NCBI GenBank assembly: GCA_030747675.1
Contig: JASLKH010000026.1
Coordinates: 1 to 12,904, forward strand
DNA from: Candidatus Thalassarchaeaceae archaeon
GTDB lineage: Archaea > Thermoplasmatota > Poseidoniia > Poseidoniales > Thalassarchaeaceae
Direction of reading: 5' to 3'
Length of the DNA stretch: 12,904 bases
Positions 3 through 11,773 of the stretch are shown here, piece after piece. The notes below the pieces were generated by a model. That model had not been told where the DNA came from and did no database searches. It saw only the letters and a program-made list of their open reading frames with translations. Position numbers and translations under genes: made by a program. Numbering within the stretch: position 1 is the first letter of the stretch; every line of letters starts with the position of its first letter.

Positions 3-2591
3 TCACCCGAAACATTGAGCACTGGTGGGGCTGGAATAAAGGTCAACCAGTCGTATGGTTTGGGTTGGTTTGCAGTTCGTGATGTTGAAGGAGAAGTTGT
101 AAATGATGATCTACAAAATGGCGATTGGGTTGTTGCAGGTGAAACAATACATTTCCAAGGCCAAATTTTGTTTGTAGATACCCAAGATGCGCCATTAAAC
201 TCAGTTTACGATGTCCGAGTGGCACGTAAAGATAGTCAAGGTGATTTTGTTGCATCATCTTGGAAAGATAATTCTAATCCAAATGGTTCATTCTTCATTT
301 CTGTACAAGTTCCTGAAATCAATATCCCCGAAGGTGTAACATTTGAAGTTCAAACCTACAATGAAAGAGACTCAACCAAAGTCATGCCTGTCAATTCATC
401 GTGGAGACGCACAATCCGAGTCGATAATTCAGCACCACTAATTATCAACAATTGGCCTCAAGATAGTGATTATGAAGCATCCAGTACATCCCAACAGATT
501 GCAGTTACTGTCCGAGATGAAGTAGGAGACCCTGAAGAATTGATTCTACATTATTGGGTAGAAGCAGACCATGACTCCAACAGAAATGGTATTGCGGATT
601 CAAATGAGTATGTGAATCAAACACTTACAAATCAAACCCATGAAGAAGAAAAAGTATTCTTTGGTATGATTGATGATTCACGTAATCCGAATATGGCTAG
701 AGTTTCATACTTTATTTCAGGTACTGACCCTGCAGGGAATTCACTGATATCTCCTGATGGCCCTGGATTTGATTATGATTTAGCTACATATCGTACACGA
801 AAAGATATGGCTTCAGTATTTACCGGATTAAATTGGGTAAATCATGCAGATGGATCAGATGTTTTCAGTGGTACCGACCAATCAATTTCTGTAGGCCTTG
901 TAGATGCAAATGGAATCATTGATTTTGAGTATATTTCGCTAGTATTTGACTTTGAAGGTCCAGATCCTGAACGCGATCAACAAAAAATTTCATACAATGG
1001 AAGAAGCGGGATGTGGTCATATGACGATGCGTATCTTGAATTGCTCCCTAGTAGTACTACATCAGTAACTACAAACACTTCAGGATTACCTTGGATTTTC
1101 ATCAATTTTGACTTCAAGTTTTCATGGGATTGGCCTGATGAAGATATTTCTGACTTAGCCTTGGTTTACAAAGAACTAGGCTCCACAGAACCAACTCGAA
1201 TTGAATTTGATGAGTACACTTTCAGTGTAGAAAATGATCTCGTTCTAGACGCATCTACATACCTCGTAGAGGATGTTGCAGAGCCAAGAGTTGGACAAGT
1301 AGATGATGCCACTCCTGTCCGACCAGATGATCGATTACGATGGTCTGGAAGAGTAGTCTATGAAGGAAGTAATGTTCCGGCTCCAAATGATTTGGGAATC
1401 ACTGTTGAAGTCTTTGATGGGGTAGAATATTGGTCCGATGGGAGTCTTACTGACGATGGGCGCTTTGGGATTGAAGTTCCATTAAACGCTGCAACAACTT
1501 TGCAAAGTGCTGAATCTCGAACTTTCTTAACCGGTGTTCGAAATGTACCTGGTCGGGGAGAGGACATGACAAGAAGTACGGTCGCAACAACATTGCAACT
1601 GAATGTAGACCATACACCACCAAGGGTCCATCATAGAATAGAACCCGTGAATGTCATTGACATTTCTGCTGCCAGTGACTTAACCAATGTTCCTGTTAAA
1701 TTTGTAGGATGGGAAGAATGCTTATTGGTTGATGATGATGACCGTTGTGCTGCATTTGGACAAAGTCCACAATGGGTGAATTGGGTCATGAGAGATGATG
1801 CAAGGACTATTGCTGCTGGACAATCACTGTTAGCCATGCAAGTTCTTGATGACAGCATCGAATGGATTGGTGAAGTTGATCTTACTAGCGATGGAGTTGT
1901 TTCACCTCGTGCAGGCTACAGAGTTGGTTTTTGGATAACTGGACATGACGCTGCTGGGAATGAATTTCCTATGGCAACGAATACTGAGAGTGACCCTGTT
2001 CGTGAACGTGCAGATGATGATGATGATTACAATCTTGCTTGGGTTAAACTTGGAGCCACAGTTGCAGAACTTATGGTAAAAAGTATTACTTTAGAAAAAG
2101 ATACACTAAGCGAAGGAAGTGAAGTGGAAATTTCAGCAATTATAGCTAATGTGGGTGGCCAAACAGAATCATCATTTACAGTTCAATTCATAGCGGAAGG
2201 TGAAGTTTTTGATTCACAGCGTATTGCTGGGTTGCCTAGTGAAACAGAATTCCCAATAAAAGCTACATGGAAGGCTGAAAAAGGAGTAGATCGAATTACA
2301 ATCTTAATTGATGCTGACAATGAAGTTGTTGAAGTAGACGAAGACGGTAATAGTATGTCAATTGGCGTATCAGTAGAGTATTCATGGGGAATGGGATGGG
2401 TTGACAGTTGGCGACAAAATCCCTTGACTGTAATTGGTGTGATTATTGCTTTAATCCTGTTACCAACAATTGCTGTGATTACGTGGAAAACTTCTCTCTC
2501 AACTTCTTCTGATTTGTATGATGATGAATTACATTACGAAGATGATGAGGATGATGATTGGGAAGATGAGGATGAGGATGATTGGGAATAA
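3..2591 (+). CDS. Large acidic cell-surface protein with C-terminal CARDB (Ig-like) domain, single transmembrane anchor and acidic tail; 5'-truncated
   Basis: The frame is open from the window edge (tca ccc gaa aca ttg...), so the TTG at 15 is not the real start. It contains beta-rich acidic repeats and an EF-hand-like loop DSNRNGIADSNE (573-608). A CARDB-like segment spans ~2064-2378 (ELMVKSITL...ISAIIANVG...ATW...ITILIDADNEVVEVDEDGN). A hydrophobic helix LTVIGVIIALILLPTIAVITW (2424-2486) is followed by a D/E-rich tail. Stop TAA at 2589-2591. Confidence 0.8.
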   Translation, partial: SPETLSTGGAGIKVNQSYGLGWFAVRDVEGEVVNDDLQNGDWVVAGETIHFQGQILFVDTQDAPLNSVYDVRVARKDSQGDFVASSWKDNSNPNGSFFISVQVPEINIPEGVTFEVQTYNERDSTKVMPVNSSWRRTIRVDNSAPLIINNWPQDSDYEASSTSQQIAVTVRDEVGDPEELILHYWVEADHDSNRNGIADSNEYVNQTLTNQTHEEEKVFFGMIDDSRNPNMARVSYFISGTDPAGNSLISPDGPGFDYDLATYRTRKDMASVFTGLNWVNHADGSDVFSGTDQSISVGLVDANGIIDFEYISLVFDFEGPDPERDQQKISYNGRSGMWSYDDAYLELLPSSTTSVTTNTSGLPWIFINFDFKFSWDWPDEDISDLALVYKELGSTEPTRIEFDEYTFSVENDLVLDASTYLVEDVAEPRVGQVDDATPVRPDDRLRWSGRVVYEGSNVPAPNDLGITVEVFDGVEYWSDGSLTDDGRFGIEVPLNAATTLQSAESRTFLTGVRNVPGRGEDMTRSTVATTLQLNVDHTPPRVHHRIEPVNVIDISAASDLTNVPVKFVGWEECLLVDDDDRCAAFGQSPQWVNWVMRDDARTIAAGQSLLAMQVLDDSIEWIGEVDLTSDGVVSPRAGYRVGFWITGHDAAGNEFPMATNTESDPVRERADDDDDYNLAWVKLGATVAELMVKSITLEKDTLSEGSEVEISAIIANVGGQTESSFTVQFIAEGEVFDSQRIAGLPSETEFPIKATWKAEKGVDRITILIDADNEVVEVDEDGNSMSIGVSVEYSWGMGWVDSWRQNPLTVIGVIIALILLPTIAVITWKTSLSTSSDLYDDELHYEDDEDDDWEDEDEDDWE
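2544..2588 (+). repeat. Imperfect tandem duplication in a coding low-complexity tract (DEDDDWE / DEDEDDWE)
   Basis: GATGAGGATGATGATTGGGAA (2544-2564) is followed directly by GATGAGGATGAGGATGATTGGGAA (2565-2588). Confidence 0.75.
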
Positions 2592-2654
2592 TTCCCAATA
2601 AGTTCGGCGGATTCAAAGCATTGGAGCAGGCGCCACTGAATGGGAGCCGAGAGA

Positions 2655-5600
2655 ATGGGAGTATTCGATTCACTTTGTATTCCTTTGAACTCTCACCTGG
2701 CTGATGAAGGGTGGGTGCCAACACCCATACAAGAATCTGCCATAATACCAATTTCATCTGGTAAAAATTGCATTTTAATTGCACCCACGGGTTCTGGAAA
2801 AACTGAAGCTGCAATTCTTCCTATGATTAGCAGAGCCTTTTCTAAAGAATGGGGGCCGATGTCCATACTCTATGTTACTCCACTTAGAGCATTAAACCGA
2901 GATATTGATCGTCGCTTGGAAAAATGGGTTAAATTGGCCGGGATTACAGTCGGTCTACGACATGGAGATACCTCTCAATCTGAACGAAATAAGCAATCAA
3001 GAAAACCCCCTCACTTACTTGTTACAACACCTGAAACATTGCAAATAATGATGACTGGGAAGAGACTGCGAGAGCATTTGAAAAACGTACGTGCGGTCAT
3101 TGTTGACGAAGTACATGAATTAGCGGCATCGGAAAGGGGGTCCCAGCTATTAGTTGGCCTTTCAAGAATTGAGGAATTGGCAAAAAGAAAAATTCAGCGA
3201 GTTGGATTATCTGCTACAGTGGGAAACCCCAATGAAATTGCCAATTGGTTAGCAACTGAAAATTGTGAACCGATTATTGCCCCAGCACCCCGCGGCACAG
3301 AAATTAGAATCACCTGTTCTCAGCCAGAAGATCAAGATGAAGCCATTGCATTGGAACATAACACTTCACCAAAAGCAATGGCTTCACTACGAATGCTGGC
3401 TAAAAGATTGAAGAAAGATGCTCCTTCATTAATTTTCGTAAATAGCAGAAATGCAGCAGAGACTGTTGCTTCAAGGTTAGCAACTTTTGACAAATCCCTA
3501 GATATTGGAATTCATCATGGATCTCTGTCAAGTGAATTACGAGAAGAAATGGAAGAACGATTGCAATCCGGAAACATTCATGCATTAGTTTGCACCAGTA
3601 GTTTGGAACTTGGAATTGATGTTGGTGCTATTCGTCATGTGCATCAAATTCAGTCCCCACGTTCAGTTGATAGATTGCTGCAAAGAGTAGGCCGTGCGGA
3701 ACATGTATTGGGTGGAACTGGAAGAGGGGATTTGGTTGCATGGGAACATGATGAGATTGGTGAAGCCGCAGTAATTGCACGTCGTGCTATATCGGGTGAA
3801 TTGGAAGGAGTTCGTTGGCGTACAATGCCACGAACCGTAGCTGCAAACCAGATGGTCATGATGACTTTGTCCGAAGGAATCACACCTCTTGATGCTACAA
3901 CCACTTTATTCCAAAGAACTTCAATATTCAAGGAATGGACTCATCAAGATACGCTTTCACTAGCAAAAATTCTTGATGATCGTTGGCTAATTCGACTCGT
4001 CGAAAATCCTATGATATCCGATCCATTAGAGTGGGCTCCATCACTTTGGAGGAAACTTGCTGAGGGAATTTCTGTTCCTGAAGAAAGGCCAAAGCCCGAA
4101 GAAATCGAAGATGTAGATGAAAGCAAGGTTAACCTTTGGAGAGAAGCGATTCGATCTCAACTTCCTCAACATTTGAAAGGAGGTTGGACTTCTGCAGCTG
4201 CAAGAACTCGTCAATATATGATGAAGCATCTCTCAATGATACCAGATGAGCAGCGATATACAGTTAGAGATTCTGTTTCAAGAAAGGCAATCGGTTCCGT
4301 AGATGAAGCATTTGTTCTTTCATTGAATGATTCTGGGCAAGAAACTGATGGAATTGCTCGAAGGTTTGTGATAGTTGGTCGTACATGGGAAATAATTGAA
4401 GCCGACCCTGAAAAATCCGAATTACTAGTTGCTCCAGCCGGACCTGGGGGTTCGGCCCCAGTTTGGAGTGGAGAATTACCTCCCGTTCCAGCAACAATTG
4501 CAAGAGAAGTTGGTGCACTGCGAAGAAAGGTTCGCGAACTAGCGGAAGGGACAAATGAAGAGGATTATGAAAAATTCGAGCGTTTGGATTGGATAGGTGG
4601 ATTGCCACCAAAAACTGAAATCGAAGATTATCCGTTGGCACCTGACGCTTTGGAACTGTATATGAATACAATAACTGAACATGTTGCAGCAGCAGAAAAT
4701 CTTCCTGATGAGCGAAACATCGATGTTGAAACTCGTCGTGATGCAATTGTTGTTCATTCTTGTCATGGTAGCCGAGTTAATGAGACGCTAGCACACTTTC
4801 TACAGGCTATGGCATCAACTATTGAAGGTCGAATGGGGCGAGTAATTGTTGATCCATACCGCATCAGTTTGCAAGTTCCAGGACTACGTGCAACGCATGT
4901 CGTAGATTGGTTGACACAAACCAAACCCGAAGGATTGGAAAGTATCATGAGAGTTACAATTCCAAATGGAAGACAACTACGGTGGAGACTTGTGCAAGTT
5001 TGCAAAGTAATGGGTGTCCTTCAATCAGGTGTTGATCCAAGAAAAGTGAATCTATCTGGAATCATTAATCGGTACAAAGGAACACCTTTGATGGAGGAAG
5101 CATTAGATAAATTATTCAATGAACGAATGGATATTGAAAGCACCATAGATTTACTCCATGCAATACAATCAGGGATTGTTCAAGTTGAACAACGGAGTCC
5201 AGGACGACTTGGACTTTCACCAAAGTCAGAAAGAGATCTACAACTTCCTGATTGGTCAAATGTTGAAGTCCGAAAAAGATTAGAAGGGCGACTAATCAAT
5301 GAAAGAGTTCTAACAATTTGTTTACGTTGTCAGGCTACCACTAGATTCAGAGTAGCTAGATATCCTGAAATTGATAAGAAATGTACAATATGCAATGCAA
5401 CAATGCGAGCGGTTGCTCGAGAAGGTCTAGCAGATGAACTCAAAAAATGGGTCAAGTCCGATGAAACAAAAGTGAAAAATCGTATGCTAAAGAATGCTGA
5501 AATGGTTCAACATCGTGGCTTGGATGCAATTCTCTGCCTGATGGGAAGGGGTATTGGTGAAGAAACTGCAACACGAATTCTACGAGCAAATCCAATTGGC

Positions 5601-5678
5601 TGCCAGCGAGACGCATTGCTAAAATCAATTCATGATGCTGAAATTCAATATGCACGAACAAGGCGCTTCTGGGGTTAG
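2655..5678 (+). CDS. lhr: ATP-dependent SF2 helicase, archaeal Lhr family (DEVH box) with C-terminal Cys4 zinc-binding motif
   Basis: Motifs seen: Q motif (PTPIQESAI), I APTGSGKT, Ia YVTPLRALNRD, RHGDT, Ib VTTPETLQ, II DEVH, III GLSATV, IV IFVNSR, HHGSLS, V CTSSLELGID and VI LLQRVGRAEH. Lhr-type downstream segments include SMIPD, GRTWEI and PVWSGELPPV. CLRC...CTIC lies at 5319-5393 and the protein ends ARTRRFWG. The start is either ATG 2655 (GGAG 8 nt upstream) or ATG 2640. Confidence 0.9.
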   Translation: MGVFDSLCIPLNSHLADEGWVPTPIQESAIIPISSGKNCILIAPTGSGKTEAAILPMISRAFSKEWGPMSILYVTPLRALNRDIDRRLEKWVKLAGITVGLRHGDTSQSERNKQSRKPPHLLVTTPETLQIMMTGKRLREHLKNVRAVIVDEVHELAASERGSQLLVGLSRIEELAKRKIQRVGLSATVGNPNEIANWLATENCEPIIAPAPRGTEIRITCSQPEDQDEAIALEHNTSPKAMASLRMLAKRLKKDAPSLIFVNSRNAAETVASRLATFDKSLDIGIHHGSLSSELREEMEERLQSGNIHALVCTSSLELGIDVGAIRHVHQIQSPRSVDRLLQRVGRAEHVLGGTGRGDLVAWEHDEIGEAAVIARRAISGELEGVRWRTMPRTVAANQMVMMTLSEGITPLDATTTLFQRTSIFKEWTHQDTLSLAKILDDRWLIRLVENPMISDPLEWAPSLWRKLAEGISVPEERPKPEEIEDVDESKVNLWREAIRSQLPQHLKGGWTSAAARTRQYMMKHLSMIPDEQRYTVRDSVSRKAIGSVDEAFVLSLNDSGQETDGIARRFVIVGRTWEIIEADPEKSELLVAPAGPGGSAPVWSGELPPVPATIAREVGALRRKVRELAEGTNEEDYEKFERLDWIGGLPPKTEIEDYPLAPDALELYMNTITEHVAAAENLPDERNIDVETRRDAIVVHSCHGSRVNETLAHFLQAMASTIEGRMGRVIVDPYRISLQVPGLRATHVVDWLTQTKPEGLESIMRVTIPNGRQLRWRLVQVCKVMGVLQSGVDPRKVNLSGIINRYKGTPLMEEALDKLFNERMDIESTIDLLHAIQSGIVQVEQRSPGRLGLSPKSERDLQLPDWSNVEVRKRLEGRLINERVLTICLRCQATTRFRVARYPEIDKKCTICNATMRAVAREGLADELKKWVKSDETKVKNRMLKNAEMVQHRGLDAILCLMGRGIGEETATRILRANPIGCQRDALLKSIHDAEIQYARTRRFWG

Positions 5679-5698
5679 TAACCCTCATGGACGGGGAG
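5679..5698 (+). repeat. Left arm of an imperfect inverted repeat (partner at 6704-6723)
   Basis: TAACCCTCATGGACGGGGAG versus the reverse complement of 6704-6723, TAACCCTCAAACGCGGGAAG: 15/20 identical, with the first 9 exact. Confidence 0.55.
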
Positions 5699-5700
5699 GT
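5695..5700 (+). promoter_or_regulatory. Shine-Dalgarno site of the kinase-like gene
   Basis: GGAGGT, 12 nt upstream of ATG 5713. Confidence 0.55.
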
Positions 5701-5712
5701 AAACCTCGGTGC

Positions 5713-6261
5713 ATGTGGTTCGGGCTCACGGGGCGGAACGCCTCTGGAAAAACAACTGTAGTTGAGTGGCTCAAAAAGCATGGATACAAAGCAACTTCAT
5801 GCTCTGATTCAATACGCTCATGGTTACATGAGGAAGGTGAAGAAATCACACGTGAAAATCTAATTCAAGGTGGTAGAACGCTGCGTGAAATGGGTGGAGC
5901 GGGGATATTAGCAGAAATGCTACGTGACTCAAATTCTGATGAAAAAAAATTGGTGATTGATTCTATTCGTACTCCTGCTGAAGTTGAGGCACTTCGACAG
6001 CGAGTTGAGTTTCAATTAATTGAAGTTCGAGCTAGTAGAGAAGTTCGCTGGGAACGTCTCCAATCAAGAGCAAGACCAGGGGACCCTGAGACCTATGAAT
6101 TATTTGTTGAGCAAGAAGAAGCTGAATTAATTGCGGTGAATACCAGTGGCCAGGCGCTTGATGCTACAGCAAAAATGGCCGATATTGTAATCAATAACAA
6201 TGGCATTTCAGATGAGTTGGATAGAGCCCTAGAGAATCTACTCAAGCCTGACGAATCTTGA
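5713..6261 (+). CDS. P-loop nucleoside/nucleotide kinase-like protein (COG0237 / dephospho-CoA-kinase-like AAA family); substrate uncertain
   Basis: Walker A GLTGRNASGKTT sits at the N-terminus. Also present are SCSDSIR, TRENLIQGGRTLRE, VIDSIRTPAEV, RWERLQSRARPGD and ADIVINNNG. ATG 5713 follows GGAGGT (5695-5700) and avoids the overlap with lhr that a 5632 start would cause. Confidence 0.8.
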   Translation: MWFGLTGRNASGKTTVVEWLKKHGYKATSCSDSIRSWLHEEGEEITRENLIQGGRTLREMGGAGILAEMLRDSNSDEKKLVIDSIRTPAEVEALRQRVEFQLIEVRASREVRWERLQSRARPGDPETYELFVEQEEAELIAVNTSGQALDATAKMADIVINNNGISDELDRALENLLKPDES

Positions 6262-6679
6262 GTCCAGCCTCGGTCATCATTTGGGTTGATGTGTCAAAGT
6301 CATGCATCCATCGTTCAGGTACTTCACTGTCTTCTGGATAGACAACTTCGATTACACCTGCCTGAATTAATGAGCGGGCACAGCGAGTGCAAGGCGGCCA
6401 AGTAACATATGCTGTACAACCTTTCAGAGAAAGGCCTATTCGAGCTGCATGCATAATTGCATTTTCTTCAGCGTGACAGATTAAGGGGTATTTTTGCTCA
6501 CGATCTGAGAGGCGTTCTGAATCATCTTTGATACCCCTTGGGAATCCATTGAATCCAGTACTCCTAATTTCACGGTCCTCACCGACCACAACACATCCCA
6601 CCTTTGTGGAAGGATCTTTTGACCAACCGGATATATGACCTGCCAAATCAAGAAATCGCTTATCCCACTTGTCACTCAT
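6242..6679 (-). CDS. dCMP (deoxycytidylate) deaminase, ComEB/DCTD-like zinc-dependent deaminase
   Basis: Motifs: WSKDPSTKVGCVVV, GFNGFPRG, the zinc/catalytic HAEENAI and PCTRC, and LIQAGVIEVVY. ATG at 6679 is preceded by the archaeal SD AGGTGA. The TTG start at 6694 is less likely. Confidence 0.92.
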   Translation of the reverse strand: MSDKWDKRFLDLAGHISGWSKDPSTKVGCVVVGEDREIRSTGFNGFPRGIKDDSERLSDREQKYPLICHAEENAIMHAARIGLSLKGCTAYVTWPPCTRCARSLIQAGVIEVVYPEDSEVPERWMHDFDTSTQMMTEAGLKIRQA

Positions 6680-6683
6680 TGGC

Positions 6684-6689
6684 TCACCT
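6684..6689 (-). promoter_or_regulatory. Shine-Dalgarno site of dCMP deaminase
   Basis: The minus strand reads AGGTGA-GCCA-ATG. Confidence 0.6.
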
Positions 6690-6703
6690 TTCAATCGCTG
6701 TGG

Positions 6704-6723: not shown

Positions 6724-8088
6724 TTATGCAACAGGGTCAACTCCATCCTCTCCTTCTGGAGGAACTAATATGCTCATTGCATCATATGAGCCATGGTCTA
6801 GATGATTCAAAATATCTCCAATGAGGTAAAGACTACCGATACACAACACTGGCGGAGGAGTCTCGGAGTCAATTTCAATTGCTCTACTATGTGCAATTTC
6901 AAATGCTTCCAAAGGATTTTCTGATAATTCAATATTCAACTCCAAACCTTGCTCAGAAATTACCTTGGCTAATTTGGAATTATCTACTGGTGGTCTACGG
7001 CCCTGAGAGGGTTGGGTTACTACAACATGTTCAATTTGACCTTCGACAATAACTTCAACAAGTGGATGGATAAATTCGTGCAAATCATTTTGATTTGTGC
7101 ATCCAACCAATATTACTCCCGGCATGGGGGCTTCATCACGAGACTTCTGAAATCTAATTTCTTCACATGTTCGTTCCATTCCACTAGGGTTATGGGCAGC
7201 GTCCAGCAAGATTGGTACTGATTCAAATTCAATCCATTGCATTCGGCCTGGCCAATGGGTATGTGTTATTGCCCTTGGAATTTCATTAGCGGCTCTAAAT
7301 AAACCCATATTCAATAGAGCATTTTTAGCCAACATTGCTGCCTCTTCTTTGTAAGGAATCCATCCATCAAAATCTGTCCTTGTTTCTCTAAATGGTTTCA
7401 CTGCATCATCGAAAAGAATCCCTTCCATTCGATCAGCACGCCACCACCATGCCATTTGATGGTCGTTGACAGCATTTTCAATTACTTCTCGGGCATCTTT
7501 GTCATAAGTCCATGATGCAATAAACGGCCGACCTTGGCGAATGATTGCAACTTTCTCATCCGCTATTTCTGCAAGTGTATTTCCTAAAATTTCAGTATGC
7601 TCAAGAGATATTTCGGTCAAAATGCAACAATCTGCATCAACTAACCGAGTAGCATCATATCGCCCTCCAAGTCCAGTCTCAATAACAGCTCTTTGAACAC
7701 CATTTTCACTAAAAGCAATCATTGCAGCAAGAAAAGTTGCTTCATAGAATGTGGGTAAAATTGGCGGATCCTGTAAGGCAGCATCCTTGATTTTAGATAA
7801 ACATGCATCTAACATTTCATTTGTTATCGGAACGCCATCAATTCGAATTCGTTCATTGACATGCCAAAGATGTGGGGAAGTAAAGAGGCCTGTACATGTT
7901 CCTGAAAGGGTTATTGCATTCGATAATATTGCACAACATGTCCCCTTCCCATTGCTTCCCGCTACATGAATTGAAGGAAAGGAATGTTGTGGCATTCCAA
8001 GTCTAGTAAGGAGAGCGGCGGTACTCTCAATTCCTTTACGCATGCCCATGGATTTTAGAGAATTTAACCAAGTTCTAGAATCGTCCAT
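6724..8088 (-). CDS. folC: Folylpolyglutamate synthase / dihydrofolate synthase
   Basis: Motifs: HVAGSNGKGT, FTSPHL, ERIRIDG, PTFYE, VIETGLGGRYDAT, ISLEHTEILGNTLAEIADEK, WPGRMQ, LDAAHNPSG and GSLYLIG. ATG 8088 (MDDSRTWL...) has GGAGG 9 nt upstream. The longer start at 8199 overlaps the divergent gene. Confidence 0.93.
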   Translation of the reverse strand: MDDSRTWLNSLKSMGMRKGIESTAALLTRLGMPQHSFPSIHVAGSNGKGTCCAILSNAITLSGTCTGLFTSPHLWHVNERIRIDGVPITNEMLDACLSKIKDAALQDPPILPTFYEATFLAAMIAFSENGVQRAVIETGLGGRYDATRLVDADCCILTEISLEHTEILGNTLAEIADEKVAIIRQGRPFIASWTYDKDAREVIENAVNDHQMAWWWRADRMEGILFDDAVKPFRETRTDFDGWIPYKEEAAMLAKNALLNMGLFRAANEIPRAITHTHWPGRMQWIEFESVPILLDAAHNPSGMERTCEEIRFQKSRDEAPMPGVILVGCTNQNDLHEFIHPLVEVIVEGQIEHVVVTQPSQGRRPPVDNSKLAKVISEQGLELNIELSENPLEAFEIAHSRAIEIDSETPPPVLCIGSLYLIGDILNHLDHGSYDAMSILVPPEGEDGVDPVA

Positions 8089-8153
8089 AGTTTGGCCCCT
8101 CCGGGGCTCCGTGAACGGTCGCCTTGAAATGGCCTTTGAGGCTCGCCCGAGGT
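8089..8153. promoter_or_regulatory. Compact divergent promoter region (folC / presenilin homologue)
   Basis: A 65-bp spacer between two divergent starts must hold both promoters. The central CCTTGAAAT (8122-8130) reads as a TT(C/G)AA element on both strands. Confidence 0.5.
8098..8102 (-). promoter_or_regulatory. Shine-Dalgarno site of folC
   Basis: Minus-strand GGAGG, 9 nt upstream of ATG 8088. Confidence 0.65.
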
Positions 8154-10433
8154 ATGTCAGGCGAAGGTTTCGCTGCCAAACGGCGTGCTTCCAAAACATC
8201 TGGAGGTACCAACAGTGCTGGAATTAATTCAAAACCATCATTGATTGATGCACTCAAAGAACAGGCTCCATCAATGGCAGGGATGGCTGCAATGTTCATC
8301 GTTACAATTCTACTTGCAATGTCAATACAAGAATTCTATGACCATGATGAAATGAGGGCATTTGGAGATTCAGGGTCTACGAAAGCAGGATTTATTTTTA
8401 TGGAATTATTCTTCATTTTCGTCTTTACAGCAGGAATTATTTTCATGGCAAGAAAAGGAATGGAGAAATTCATTCGTCGGGGTGTGCTTTTTGTATTGTG
8501 GATTGCACTGGTTTACACCATGATGCCACTAACCGATATGATTCTTGGTGATGGTGACCCTACACTTTCATTAACGGACGAAAATCAGTCAGAATCATAC
8601 ATAATTTCCACATGGGAAGATGGAAGTTTCATATTATACGAACCAACAAATAGCCAAAATGGAACTATCAGTTATATGACTGATGCAGGTGGCTCTGAAG
8701 GTGATTATGGTGGAGCTATAGTTGAATGGTCGCATGAAATCAAACATGAAAATGGACAAGAAAGTCAAGCATCTTGGCCACAGGTTCTACGTTCTGATGA
8801 TGGATTTGTCCTCTGTGAAGGTACTCAGTGGGTATTACTAAATTCAGAATCAGGAATTGAAATTGAAGATGAAAGAAGTTCCATGGATTGTATTCTTGGT
8901 CTTAGAGATGAATACAATTCGAATACAAACCCTTCGTGGGAAAATTGTGATGGTCATGAAGTCCCGCAAGATTGGAGATTAATTGGTAATATAATGAGTC
9001 CAATTCCTCATTTGAATGATTTTGAAGGTTCTCAAGAATGCATTGGTGCAAATGGAAATTGGCAGAGAATGTTTCCAGAAAGTTATCACGGTGTTGAAAG
9101 CATTATTTTGGTCGAAGAAATTGGTAATCATCACTTCTTGATTGTATCCAGTCAATGGGCAGGAATGGTTGTTTATCCAGAAGTATCTAGCGCAGCATTT
9201 GGTAGCGAATTGGCTGATGTTGAAACAACTTGGGAGAAAAGTCTAGACGGTGATGAAATGTTCACATCTGCTACTTACGGATCTGCTCCAGGAAACGAAA
9301 TCAGTGGTCATGAGAAATTGCTGGTGCTGGGAACAAGTGAGGGTTCAGTTACTGGTTGGACAATGAACATGACCACTGGAAATGTTGAATCTGATAGTAG
9401 TATGAAATTTGATTCAAGAGATGCTTTCAATGAACCTATTCGCGGTTTATTACTAGCTGATTGTTGTAATGGAGGGAGTAATGACCTATGGATAGTTGAG
9501 GGAGATCAACTTAGAATATTCATGTATGAGGGGTTGATAGAAAAACCTCTAGGATTGAAAATATCAGGCAGTAACCAAGTAAATATGTCTCTACACACAA
9601 TAGAAAATCCGGATCATAATTGGGAAGATGGGATATTATTAATCGAAAGAAATGGGGGTTGGGTTTCAACGATTTACGACCCGAGTGAATTTCAACCAGA
9701 ATTTGCCTTTGTCATTGATGGTGTTGGTGGTGTATCTTGGGCAGAAATTGTAGCTCTAGTGATTGCAATTAGTTTGATGATTGCACTCATCAAATATCCT
9801 GAATGGTATGTGGTAAACACTGTGGGTATATTGGTCGGAGCTGGAGTTATTACCATTCTTGGGGTTTCATTTGATGAATGGTTAATCATTCTCTTCATGG
9901 TATTGGCTGCCTGCTATGATGCTTGGGCCGTTTACAAATCCAAGCATATGCTAGAACTAGCGGATACAATGATTGGGTTGAAATTACCAATATTGCTCGT
10001 TGCTCCTCAAGACAAAGAATACTCATTCCTTGATGAAGGTGAAAATGTGATGGCCGATAGAGATGAGGTCTCAAAGAATGAATCCACGCAATCTGATGTG
10101 CAGGCTAATCAGCCACGACCGATAAAGAAAGGTGGAGAGGCAATGTTCATGGGTCTTGGAGATGTTATATTCCCTGGAATGTTGTGTATTTCCGCAATGA
10201 CTTGGTTACCCGAAATGAGCGGACCCCTTGGATGGGCTGCATCAACTTGGGTAGCCCTAGGTACAATGATTGGTGGTTTGTTCGGTTATCTGTGGCTAAT
10301 GACTTATGTTGCACGTGGAAAGCCACAAGCAGGGTTGCCTTTATTGAATGGTGGTGCCATTTTAGGATATGTAATTTCTGCAATGATTTTCGTTGGTAGT
10401 AGTGCCTTTGAATTCAACATTAGCCTATTCTGA
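8154..10433 (+). CDS. Presenilin/signal-peptide-peptidase-type GxGD intramembrane aspartyl protease (archaeal PSH family) with a ~390-aa inserted extracytoplasmic domain
   Basis: There are nine predicted TM helices. Catalytic YD is at 9915-9920 (YDAWAVYKSKHM) and GLGD at 10152-10163. A PAL-equivalent GKPQAGLPLLN starts near 10323. The PSH-typical segments KYPEWYVVN and LKLPILLVAP are present. ATG 8154 is preferred over TTG 8124. Confidence 0.9.
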   Translation: MSGEGFAAKRRASKTSGGTNSAGINSKPSLIDALKEQAPSMAGMAAMFIVTILLAMSIQEFYDHDEMRAFGDSGSTKAGFIFMELFFIFVFTAGIIFMARKGMEKFIRRGVLFVLWIALVYTMMPLTDMILGDGDPTLSLTDENQSESYIISTWEDGSFILYEPTNSQNGTISYMTDAGGSEGDYGGAIVEWSHEIKHENGQESQASWPQVLRSDDGFVLCEGTQWVLLNSESGIEIEDERSSMDCILGLRDEYNSNTNPSWENCDGHEVPQDWRLIGNIMSPIPHLNDFEGSQECIGANGNWQRMFPESYHGVESIILVEEIGNHHFLIVSSQWAGMVVYPEVSSAAFGSELADVETTWEKSLDGDEMFTSATYGSAPGNEISGHEKLLVLGTSEGSVTGWTMNMTTGNVESDSSMKFDSRDAFNEPIRGLLLADCCNGGSNDLWIVEGDQLRIFMYEGLIEKPLGLKISGSNQVNMSLHTIENPDHNWEDGILLIERNGGWVSTIYDPSEFQPEFAFVIDGVGGVSWAEIVALVIAISLMIALIKYPEWYVVNTVGILVGAGVITILGVSFDEWLIILFMVLAACYDAWAVYKSKHMLELADTMIGLKLPILLVAPQDKEYSFLDEGENVMADRDEVSKNESTQSDVQANQPRPIKKGGEAMFMGLGDVIFPGMLCISAMTWLPEMSGPLGWAASTWVALGTMIGGLFGYLWLMTYVARGKPQAGLPLLNGGAILGYVISAMIFVGSSAFEFNISLF

Positions 10434-10489: not shown

Positions 10490-11773
10490 ATGCTCGACAT
10501 TAGGATGTTTCGAGACCATGCAGATGTAATCCGTGCTGATTATGACAAACGTGGTATCCCTCATGATTCGATTGATGCTGTAATTAGTCTTGATGAAGCA
10601 TGGAGGAAATCCCAATACGATGCTGATCAATTGCGTCGAAAGAGAAACGAAGCCGCACGTGGAATTGCTGCTGCAAAGAAGGCCGGTGATGAGGAGGCAT
10701 TTGCTCTAATCAAATCAGAAGTTGATTCAATCGCATCGGAGATAGAAAAACTGGGAGTAAAAGCAGAACAACTCCAAACAGAACGTGATGCTATTCGAAT
10801 GAGTGTTCCAAATATCCTTCACGAGAGTGTTCCTGCAGGAAACGATGAGGAAGGAAATACACAGCATAGTATGCATGGAATGAAACCTGAATTCTCATTT
10901 GACCCTCGAACCCATAACGAATTAATTGAAATGAACAAATGGGTCGATTTACCACGAGCTGCGAAAGTTGCGGGAAGTCGATTCTATTTTCTCAAAGGTG
11001 ATTTGGCAAGGCTTGATCTAGCACTACAACAATATGCTGTTGATTTTATTAATTCCAAAGGATATACATTCGTACAACCTCCTGCTATGATGAATAGGCA
11101 TGCATACGAAGGAGTGACCGATTTAGGCGACTTTGAATCAGTAATGTACAATGTACAACCTGATGGCCTATACACCATTGCCACCAGTGAACACCCTCTG
11201 ACTGCAATGTTCATGGACGAAGTTATCGAACCTAGCCTACTTCCAATCAAAATGGTCGGTGTTTCACCTTGCTTCCGACGAGAAGTTGGTGCACATGGTC
11301 AAGGTGACAAGGGTATTTGGCGAGTACATCAATTTACAAAAATTGAGCAAATAATCATCAGCCATCCAGATGACTCATGGGATTTTCATGAAGAATTACT
11401 AACCAACTGTGTTGAATTATGGAACAATCTTGGATTACACTATGAAGTGGTAAACATATGTACAGGTGATATGGGCACTGTTGCTGCCAAAAAATACGAC
11501 CTTGAAGCTTGGTTACCTGGACGAGGTGAATACAAAGAAGTGGTATCTTGTTCAAACTGTACTGATTACCAAGCCAATCGTCTTCGGATGCGGTATCGCA
11601 CACCAGATGGGAATTCGGCAGTTCATACTCTAAACTCTACTGCAGTTGCAACATCTAGAGCCCTCGTTGCGATTATGGAGCAATATCAACTTGAAGATGG
11701 TCGTGTCCAAGTACCTGAGTGCTTAATATCAAGAATGAATGGAAAGACACACCTAGAACCTTGTGAATGGTGA
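10490..11773 (+). CDS. serS: Serine--tRNA ligase (standard type, class II aaRS)
   Basis: N-terminal MLDIRMFR and a coiled-coil arm, then GSRFYFLKG and IATSEHPL. Motif 2 is CFRREVGAHG...GIWRVHQFTKIEQ. Also AAKKYDLEAWLPG, EVVSCSNCTDYQ and motif 3 HTLNSTAVATSR. GGAGG lies 8 nt upstream of the ATG. Confidence 0.97.
   Translation: MLDIRMFRDHADVIRADYDKRGIPHDSIDAVISLDEAWRKSQYDADQLRRKRNEAARGIAAAKKAGDEEAFALIKSEVDSIASEIEKLGVKAEQLQTERDAIRMSVPNILHESVPAGNDEEGNTQHSMHGMKPEFSFDPRTHNELIEMNKWVDLPRAAKVAGSRFYFLKGDLARLDLALQQYAVDFINSKGYTFVQPPAMMNRHAYEGVTDLGDFESVMYNVQPDGLYTIATSEHPLTAMFMDEVIEPSLLPIKMVGVSPCFRREVGAHGQGDKGIWRVHQFTKIEQIIISHPDDSWDFHEELLTNCVELWNNLGLHYEVVNICTGDMGTVAAKKYDLEAWLPGRGEYKEVVSCSNCTDYQANRLRMRYRTPDGNSAVHTLNSTAVATSRALVAIMEQYQLEDGRVQVPECLISRMNGKTHLEPCEW
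11769..11773 (+). promoter_or_regulatory. Shine-Dalgarno site of the M28 peptidase overlapping the serS stop (probable translational coupling)
   Basis: GGTGA includes the serS TGA and lies 4 nt before ATG 11778. Confidence 0.55.

Follow-up and report, generated by a model that had tools for sequence, protein, structure and literature searches.

We found that a gene in a 12,904-nt stretch of DNA from a Candidatus Thalassarchaeaceae archaeon (assembly GCA_030747675.1, contig JASLKH010000026.1; below called the window, GC content about 0.42) encodes a presenilin homologue (PSH) whose membrane-embedded protease core is interrupted by a 391-residue insert, predicted to fold as a seven-bladed β-propeller. 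The gene occupies positions 8154..10433 on the plus strand, as do all features of the protein given below, and specifies 759 amino acids (aa) and a stop codon, as delimited by the open reading frame (ORF), the family profiles PF06550 and NF041679 and the homologues. It is the sole PSH of this archaeon, a member of marine group II (MGII; Poseidoniales, Thalassarchaeaceae type), and the genome (G000, 78% complete) yielded no PSH match besides it. In Pfam the gene product matched PF06550 (SPP/presenilin aspartyl protease) with an E-value of 6.4e-54 and 183.8 bits, far above the cut-off of 23.9, and is therefore a member of this family; the only other matches of the entire protein were PF04258 and, below threshold, DUF5366. 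The NCBIfam model NF041679 ('presenilin family intramembrane aspartyl protease PSH') scored 231.8 bits at a curated cut-off of 125, with the match falling into two stretches. In a six-frame search of the organism's own genome, profile positions 2-88 mapped to nt 8283-8549 and positions 86-280 to nt 9723-10382, both within a single open frame without stops, which leaves a gap in the family profile at nt 8550-9722 (residues 133-523). The catalytic motifs are YD at residues 588-589, GLGD at 667-670 and PQAGLP at 724-729; all three had been listed as intact in an earlier reading made by a model from the letters alone (the sequence-only reading), and Y588, D589, G667, L668, G669, D670 and P724 to L731 proved invariant in an alignment of 43 homologues. 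By its profile score, its YD, GxGD and PAL-type motifs and its fold of nine transmembrane (TM) helices, the protein is a PSH of MEROPS family A22 in every respect that could be tested, and its protease core, catalytically intact as judged by the motifs, is presumably active.

The reading frame is open from a TTG at 8124 (ORF 8124-10433, plus strand), and the 759 residues are counted from the ATG at 8154. Ten codons upstream of this ATG ('KWPLRLARG') resemble the N-termini of the homologues P0047 and P0092; the true start is either 8124 or 8154. Positions 8124-8199 overlap with the divergent folC ORF at its 5' end; the actual start of folC is probably Met38 (nt 8088). The public gene call (P0002) has 637 aa; its start is ATG 8520, corresponding to residue 123, so that TM1-TM3 are omitted. 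The insert nature of the propeller is thereby hidden from annotation-based surveys, which under this call would see a soluble N-terminal domain followed by six TM helices and not an insertion.

Alignment with the crystallised PSH (phmmer against PDB entry 4hyc) placed query residues 43-132 on residues 11-98 and query residues 527-745 on residues 100-292, and the 391-residue insert thus replaces one or two residues of the crystallised protein. An expanded TM3-TM4 loop had been placed at 8550-9719 in the sequence-only reading, which agrees with the 8550..9722 obtained here from the profile gap and the phmmer alignment. The full-length protein was modelled with AlphaFold2 on the alignment of 43 homologues and gave a mean predicted local distance difference test score (pLDDT) of 81.4 and a predicted TM-score (pTM) of 0.72, with nine long helices. 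An N-terminal tail of low pLDDT (residues 1-36, 8154..8261), which would be cytoplasmic and carries the basic motif KRRASK at residue 9, precedes TM1 (37-62), TM2 (78-100), the basic TM2-TM3 loop with RKGMEKFIRR at residue 100, and TM3 (104-131). This segment (8262..8546), modelled as helices 30-62, 78-100 and 104-131, corresponds to the first part of the family profile (2-88) and superposes on PSH residues 7-98. Both basic motifs are present where the earlier reading had described them. Between helices 104-131 and 529-547 the model contains 28 strands, arranged as seven sets of four and for the most part with a pLDDT of 83-95. The chain then re-enters the membrane with TM4-TM6 (helices 529-547, 551-572 and 575-595; 9738..9938), where the catalytic Asp589 of the YD motif is encoded at nt 9918-9920. 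It continues through a cytoplasmic TM6-TM7 loop (9939..10139) that varies in length among homologues and is partly disordered (pLDDT <50 at residues 631-658), and ends with TM7-TM9 (10140..10391). This last region bears Asp670 of GLGD (nt 10161-10163) and the PAL-type motif PQAGLP (nt 10323-10340), both among the invariant residues, and aligns to 4hyc with 30-32% identity.

When the membrane part of the model was compared with the crystal structure 4y6k_B, 242 of 245 residues superposed (Z 22.1, root-mean-square deviation (rmsd) 3.4, 32% identity), covering the model range 39-744. Since the membrane core superposes on crystal PSH across the insert, the propeller appears to be a true insertion into an intact PSH fold. 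Modelled separately on 28 orthologous inserts, the insert reached a pLDDT of 82.8 and a pTM of 0.87. In an exhaustive structural comparison with 48,161 PDB representatives its top match was RACK1 (7qca_SGG; 281 residues aligned at Z 17.7 and rmsd 4.0), and behind it several hundred seven-bladed propellers formed a plateau at Z 15-17, among them many WD40 proteins at Z 15-16. Integrin α6 (Z 15.3) and the sema domains of plexins and semaphorins (Z 15.0-15.2) were also found, with identities of 4-11% overall, and no specific propeller family was singled out by the structure searches. Nicastrin-like or PA-domain entries did not occur among the structure matches listed; for nicastrin this result was not used as evidence. 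According to these models, the insert is a folded seven-bladed β-propeller domain. Blade-like segments had been recognised in the sequence-only reading, which had also named a disordered or cytoplasmic insert as an outcome that would speak against it; the prediction is ordered, and the chimeric assembly that it had likewise considered is at odds with the presence of the insert in hundreds of independent assemblies.

Pfam searches with the insert of the window protein matched no family even at E≤1. Among the 28 orthologous inserts none came above threshold, and the marginal scores were those of the BBS7 propeller (0.0032), PQQ_2/BamB (0.051) and FG-GAP_3 (0.12, reached by two of the 28 MGII inserts). 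Judged by curated models, the insert belongs neither to the FG-GAP/VCBS families (PF01839, PF13517), with which it shares the seven-bladed but non-specific fold, nor to WD40 (PF00400), for which no match was found in the 28 inserts. The structural likeness to WD40 proteins is generic (Z 15-17, 6-12% identity). A profile built from the 28 inserts yielded only 77 hits when searched against 1.84 billion representative proteins. Every full-length strong hit was a protein of 688-779 aa matched over approximately residues 100-520, and the four that were scanned carry PF06550. The remaining hits comprised short fragments and six weak non-PSH proteins (E 4e-8 to 9e-4), all of them propeller proteins of the FG-GAP, FG-GAP_3 or BBS7 type. 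Profile-sequence comparison (hhalign) linked blades 5-6 to FG-GAP-type proteins with a probability of 55-80%, and the nearest ESM-Atlas feature clusters were FG-GAP/VCBS (0.79-0.81), which we regard at the level of a lead. Blade 6 (residues 429-469) is the most conserved, with a top-residue frequency of 0.60 compared with 0.27-0.45 in the other blades. It contains the FG-GAP-like loop (IRGLLLADCCNGGSNDLWIVEGDQLRIF, 9438..9521), identified by conservation and by the hhalign comparison with FG-GAP proteins, in which the window protein reads DCCNGGSND and some MGII homologues DDQRDGRVD, the latter being closer to the FG-GAP Ca-site pattern. In our reading the insert represents a propeller family of its own that is probably related, at a distance, to the FG-GAP/VCBS class. 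The fact that the full-length strong matches are all PSH argues for a dedicated module and not a shuffled domain.

Several features of the sequences point to the side of the membrane on which the propeller is located. Charges, N-X-S/T sequons and cysteines were counted over the 43 aligned homologues. The mean net charge is +3.3 for the TM2-TM3 loop and +1.5 for the TM8-TM9 loop, compared with -46 for the insert, which in the window protein contains 68 Asp and Glu versus 15 Lys and Arg. Sequons occur on average 5.6 times per insert and 0.2 times in the cytoplasmic TM6-TM7 loop. The window insert has four (residues 144, 169, 405 and 477) and six cysteines (221, 246, 265, 296, 437 and 438), so the acidic character and both counts are as originally described. 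The number of cysteines in the insert is even in 40 of the 43 homologues, and the positions are conserved as matched pairs: C221 in 42 and C246 in all 43, C265 and C296 in 16 each, and C437 and C438 in 24 each. The pair C221/C246 (8814..8891, blades 2-3) is a probable disulfide on the basis of its conservation. In PSH and presenilin the N-terminus lies inside (4HYG; PMC7248309). Taking charges, sequons, paired cysteines and this topology together, we infer that the propeller almost certainly faces the cell exterior, the same side to which the loop had been assigned from its flanking basic residues, and that this acidic domain is probably glycosylated and disulfide-bonded.

A search of a collection of 5.8 billion proteins returned 913 relatives of 417-1329 aa. 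Many independent assemblies contributed to the best 120 of these, which range from 424 to 788 aa (median 714); the named sources among them are Poseidoniales, Thalassarchaeaceae or 'marine group II/III euryarchaeote'. At 57-68% identity, the closest homologues span residues 1-759. With so many independent assemblies and full-length coverage, the fusion is not an assembly chimera. We further compared the window insert with 401 genomes of the phylum and obtained matches in 33 of them, all in the two families of the window's order (11 of 36 genomes in family f1 and 21 of 58 in family f2); as a query, the insert had no match in any other family of this sample. The open frames that contain these matches span 500-902 aa, with a single one shorter than 700 aa, and the inserts of f1 and f2 are homologous (E down to 3e-12). 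Genera of f1 in which the insert was not matched have small genomes of 1.3-1.5 Mb. Their PSH gives an uninterrupted profile match (2-279), with about eight residues at the insertion point.

Long and short PSH genes alike are preceded by folC and followed by serS across the order (loci L004-L038), and since they share this locus, the short genes are orthologues of the long ones. In the window, folC (folylpolyglutamate synthase; TIGR01499, 285.6 bits) is the divergent neighbour at 6724..8199 on the minus strand, and serS (TIGR00414, 469.9 bits) follows at 10490..11773 on the plus strand. Both are conserved synteny markers, and folC has no functional link to PSH. As orthologues at the same locus exist without it, the propeller is kept in most of the order yet is dispensable for the enzyme as such. 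A coexistence of long and short forms as paralogues was considered and, for five genomes, rejected: in G000 and four further genomes (G083, G174, G039 and G003) only the long gene gave a strong match, and extra matches scored 20-24 bits. One genome (G339) contains two short copies (L034 and L038), each between folC and serS; these are more likely two strains binned together (contamination approximately 3%) than a real duplication.

The history of the insert was traced on a maximum-likelihood tree of the PSH core (quick search, 76 rows, insert columns removed, unrooted and with no outgroup from another phylum). The long and short PSH of MGII form one clade (SH-like approximate likelihood ratio test (SH-aLRT) support 100) on a long stem of 1.02 substitutions per site, within which six short forms group in one clade (96) and 28 long forms on the other side (87). 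On this unrooted tree, the insert would most economically have been gained once, prior to the diversification of the order, and then lost in situ once, in the lineage with small genomes. In one respect the sequence-only reading needs qualifying. Propeller-bearing PSH are unusual compared with the characterised PSH. They are not rare in nature, since the layout is common in MGII, where NCBI annotates such database sequences simply as PSH, and inserts of similar size are present in other Thermoplasmatota.

To place these findings in the phylum, we surveyed PSH with the family model and detected it in 175 of 201 sampled Thermoplasmatota genomes. Nearly every family other than f5 has exactly one PSH match; in f5 no match was found in any of the 23 genomes (1.3-1.9 Mb, the 17 individually listed being 98-99% complete). 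The sister group of the order within the class (f3, probably MGIII) has a short PSH. Split PSH matches also occur in eight families of uncultured 'Thermoplasmata/Thermoplasmatota archaeon' metagenome-assembled genomes (f6, f10, f18, f35, f37, f39, f42 and f45). The long PSH of these other Thermoplasmatota (L069-L085, L092 and L095) carry inserts at the identical TM3-TM4 site, 232-401 aa in length, and in the four genomes that were checked, the same four as above, the long gene is the only PSH. FG-GAP_3 was matched by three of 12 non-MGII inserts, with E-values down to 8.5e-8. In hhalign comparisons of MGII inserts with those of other Thermoplasmatota the probability was 8% (mixed set A3) and 1% (f18-type set A5), and is thus not significant. 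The core tree unites 30 short forms in one clade (support 88) and leaves every long form outside it, and two changes between long and short suffice. A single ancient origin of the inserts is compatible with these data; independent insertions into the same permissive TM3-TM4 loop are also possible. At one locus (L075, genome G166, family f45) a K/E-rich stretch of about 140 residues was noted in the open frame upstream of TM1 of the long PSH.

Among known systems, the closest relative of the protease part is the PSH of Methanoculleus marisnigri JR1 (MCMJR1; PDB 4HYC, 4HYD, 4HYG, 4Y6K), which has the same nine-TM fold and the same YD, GxGD and PAL-type motifs and stands alone without partner subunits, as we suppose for the window protein; it differs in having one or two residues in place of the 391-residue propeller. 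A large extracellular domain next to a presenilin core is familiar from γ-secretase, where it is provided by nicastrin, a separate type I subunit with an aminopeptidase-like α/β fold. In contrast to this complex of presenilin with nicastrin, APH-1 plus PEN-2 (PDB 5A63, 6IYC, 6IDF), the ectodomain of the window protein is part of the protease chain itself, inserted between TM3 and TM4 and predicted to be an all-β propeller. The propeller is thus not a separate aminopeptidase-like subunit of the nicastrin type and is not related to nicastrin, and any likeness to γ-secretase would be functional, by analogy. The nearest precedent is offered by the eukaryotic GxGD proteases SPPL2a/b/c, which have the inverted (SPP) orientation and bear a luminal PA domain ahead of TM1. 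Like the window protein they possess an extracytoplasmic globular domain of their own in cis, whereas the domain of the window protein appears to be a propeller in the TM3-TM4 loop of a protease in presenilin orientation; no PA domain was detected by Pfam in the full-length window protein. The FG-GAP/VCBS propellers (PF01839, PF13517; the N-terminal domain of integrin α, 7CEC chain A) share the seven-bladed extracellular propeller, but structurally the window insert is no closer to integrins than to WD40 proteins. In full-text literature no propeller- or ectodomain-bearing archaeal PSH was found; Raut, Glass and Lieberman 2021 (Proteins 89:232) may mention long forms.

With moderate confidence, we propose that the propeller selects or sterically gates substrates in cis, in analogy to nicastrin. 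A substrate gate or ligand sensor had already been suggested in the sequence-only reading, from the position of the insert and by analogy with nicastrin. The propeller replaces the short extracellular TM3-TM4 turn and would hang from the outer ends of TM3 and TM4. In presenilin, TM2, TM3, TM5 and TM7 together with the kinked TM6 form the pocket occupied by APP and Notch, and TM2 and TM6 gate lateral entry (PMC7248309). As TM3 lines this pocket, a propeller attached to TM3 and TM4 would be expected to lie above the substrate entry or next to it, where it would engage membrane-protein substrates by their extracellular stub or ectodomain, or else a partner protein; such binding would select or gate which helices reach the two catalytic aspartates. 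The nicastrin ectodomain sterically hinders substrates and selects those with short stubs (PMC7248309); a role that γ-secretase assigns to a separate subunit might thus be performed here in cis. Several points weigh against this proposal. The literature assigns neither natural substrates nor a physiological role to archaeal PSH (PMC9263693, PMC8305020), nicastrin differs in fold and is a subunit of its own, and the propeller was lost in several genera. In addition, TM3 and TM4 of presenilin contact PEN-2 (PMC7248309), so the loop could equally serve assembly and not substrate choice. The last two points would suit a propeller that tethers the protease to the cell envelope, links it to another membrane complex or makes it oligomerise, or that binds independently of proteolysis, the PSH core being a general signal-peptide or TM-remnant peptidase with or without it. 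The short orthologues manage without the propeller, its loss is specific to genera with genomes of 1.3-1.5 Mb, as expected of an accessory function, and its strongly acidic, sequon-rich surface is like that of archaeal surface proteins. On the other hand, strong full-length matches of the propeller are all PSH, which argues for a function tied to the protease, and insertions into this same loop are seen again in distant families; on balance we consider an anchoring or scaffolding role rather unlikely.

Alternatively, the protein could be a receptor-protease in which the propeller binds a soluble ligand, an ion or a glycan and switches proteolysis allosterically via TM3 and TM4, leaving the substrate untouched. 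What is most conserved in the insert is a single blade with an FG-GAP-like, Ca-site-like loop (DDQRDGRVD in some homologues, DCCNGGSND here), FG-GAP propellers typically bind ligands, and TM3 and TM4 shift between the conformational classes of presenilin (PMC7248309). However, the Ca-like loop is not conserved as such, no ligand-binding motif was significant (none in Pfam at E≤1 in the window insert), and the conserved neighbourhood of the gene consists of folC and serS only, with no signalling partner; we hold this version to be improbable. The least probable explanation by far is that the layout is an artefact of chimeric assembly or of wrong joining of the ORF, that a mobile element (an intein, for example) has inserted itself, or that the insert is a linker which is disordered or lies in the cytoplasm. 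The truncated public call (637 aa, from residue 123) does indicate that annotation of the locus is error-prone. Against this stand 913 homologues that stem from independent assemblies, with the full length covered at 57-68% identity, one uninterrupted frame, the conserved synteny, a confident folded model and the lack of any intein or other Pfam family in the insert. On the grounds of the homologues, the order-wide distribution, the folded model and the synteny, we discarded an artefact. Cis selection or gating of substrates is our working proposal.

The remaining genes of the window lie upstream of folC. An ORF at 3-2591 (plus strand), open at the 5' end of the window, encodes a protein of at least 858 aa with a CARDB domain near its C-terminus, probably located at the cell surface. 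It is followed at 2640-5678 (plus strand) by a gene for an Lhr-type DEAD/DEAH helicase of 1012 aa that includes a DEAD_assoc domain (PRK13767, 382.7 bits, below the cut-off of 849); at its 3' end this gene shares 47 nt with the beginning of the next ORF. This next ORF (5632-6261, plus strand) encodes an AAA_18 kinase-like protein and is convergent with a slightly overlapping dCMP/cytidine deaminase gene (6242-6694, minus strand). Each of the two products matches one half of NF041025, 'anti-phage dCTP deaminase' (48.6 and 68.2 bits versus a cut-off of 400); they more probably belong to housekeeping nucleotide metabolism than to a defence gene.

MGII are among the most abundant archaeal groups of the surface ocean. 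How presenilin-type proteases choose their substrates is a central question, and the four-subunit γ-secretase complex is hard to dissect. In the product of the window gene, a presenilin homologue that stands alone carries a large ectodomain within its own chain, and the gene's orthologues in sister genera differ essentially by that domain. Such a natural pair at one locus, with and without the propeller, allows a clean comparison for steric gating or substrate recruitment and opens a first way to study what PSH do physiologically in archaea. More tentatively, and in the knowledge that it may well prove wrong, we suggest that propeller-PSH constitute an old, possibly single-origin subfamily spanning several Thermoplasmatota orders, which would be the one-chain functional equivalent of presenilin plus nicastrin, and whose repeated in-situ loss would mark the lineages that gave up the corresponding substrates. 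If this is true, the subfamily would represent a minimal and genetically simple system for the gating of intramembrane proteolysis by an ectodomain.

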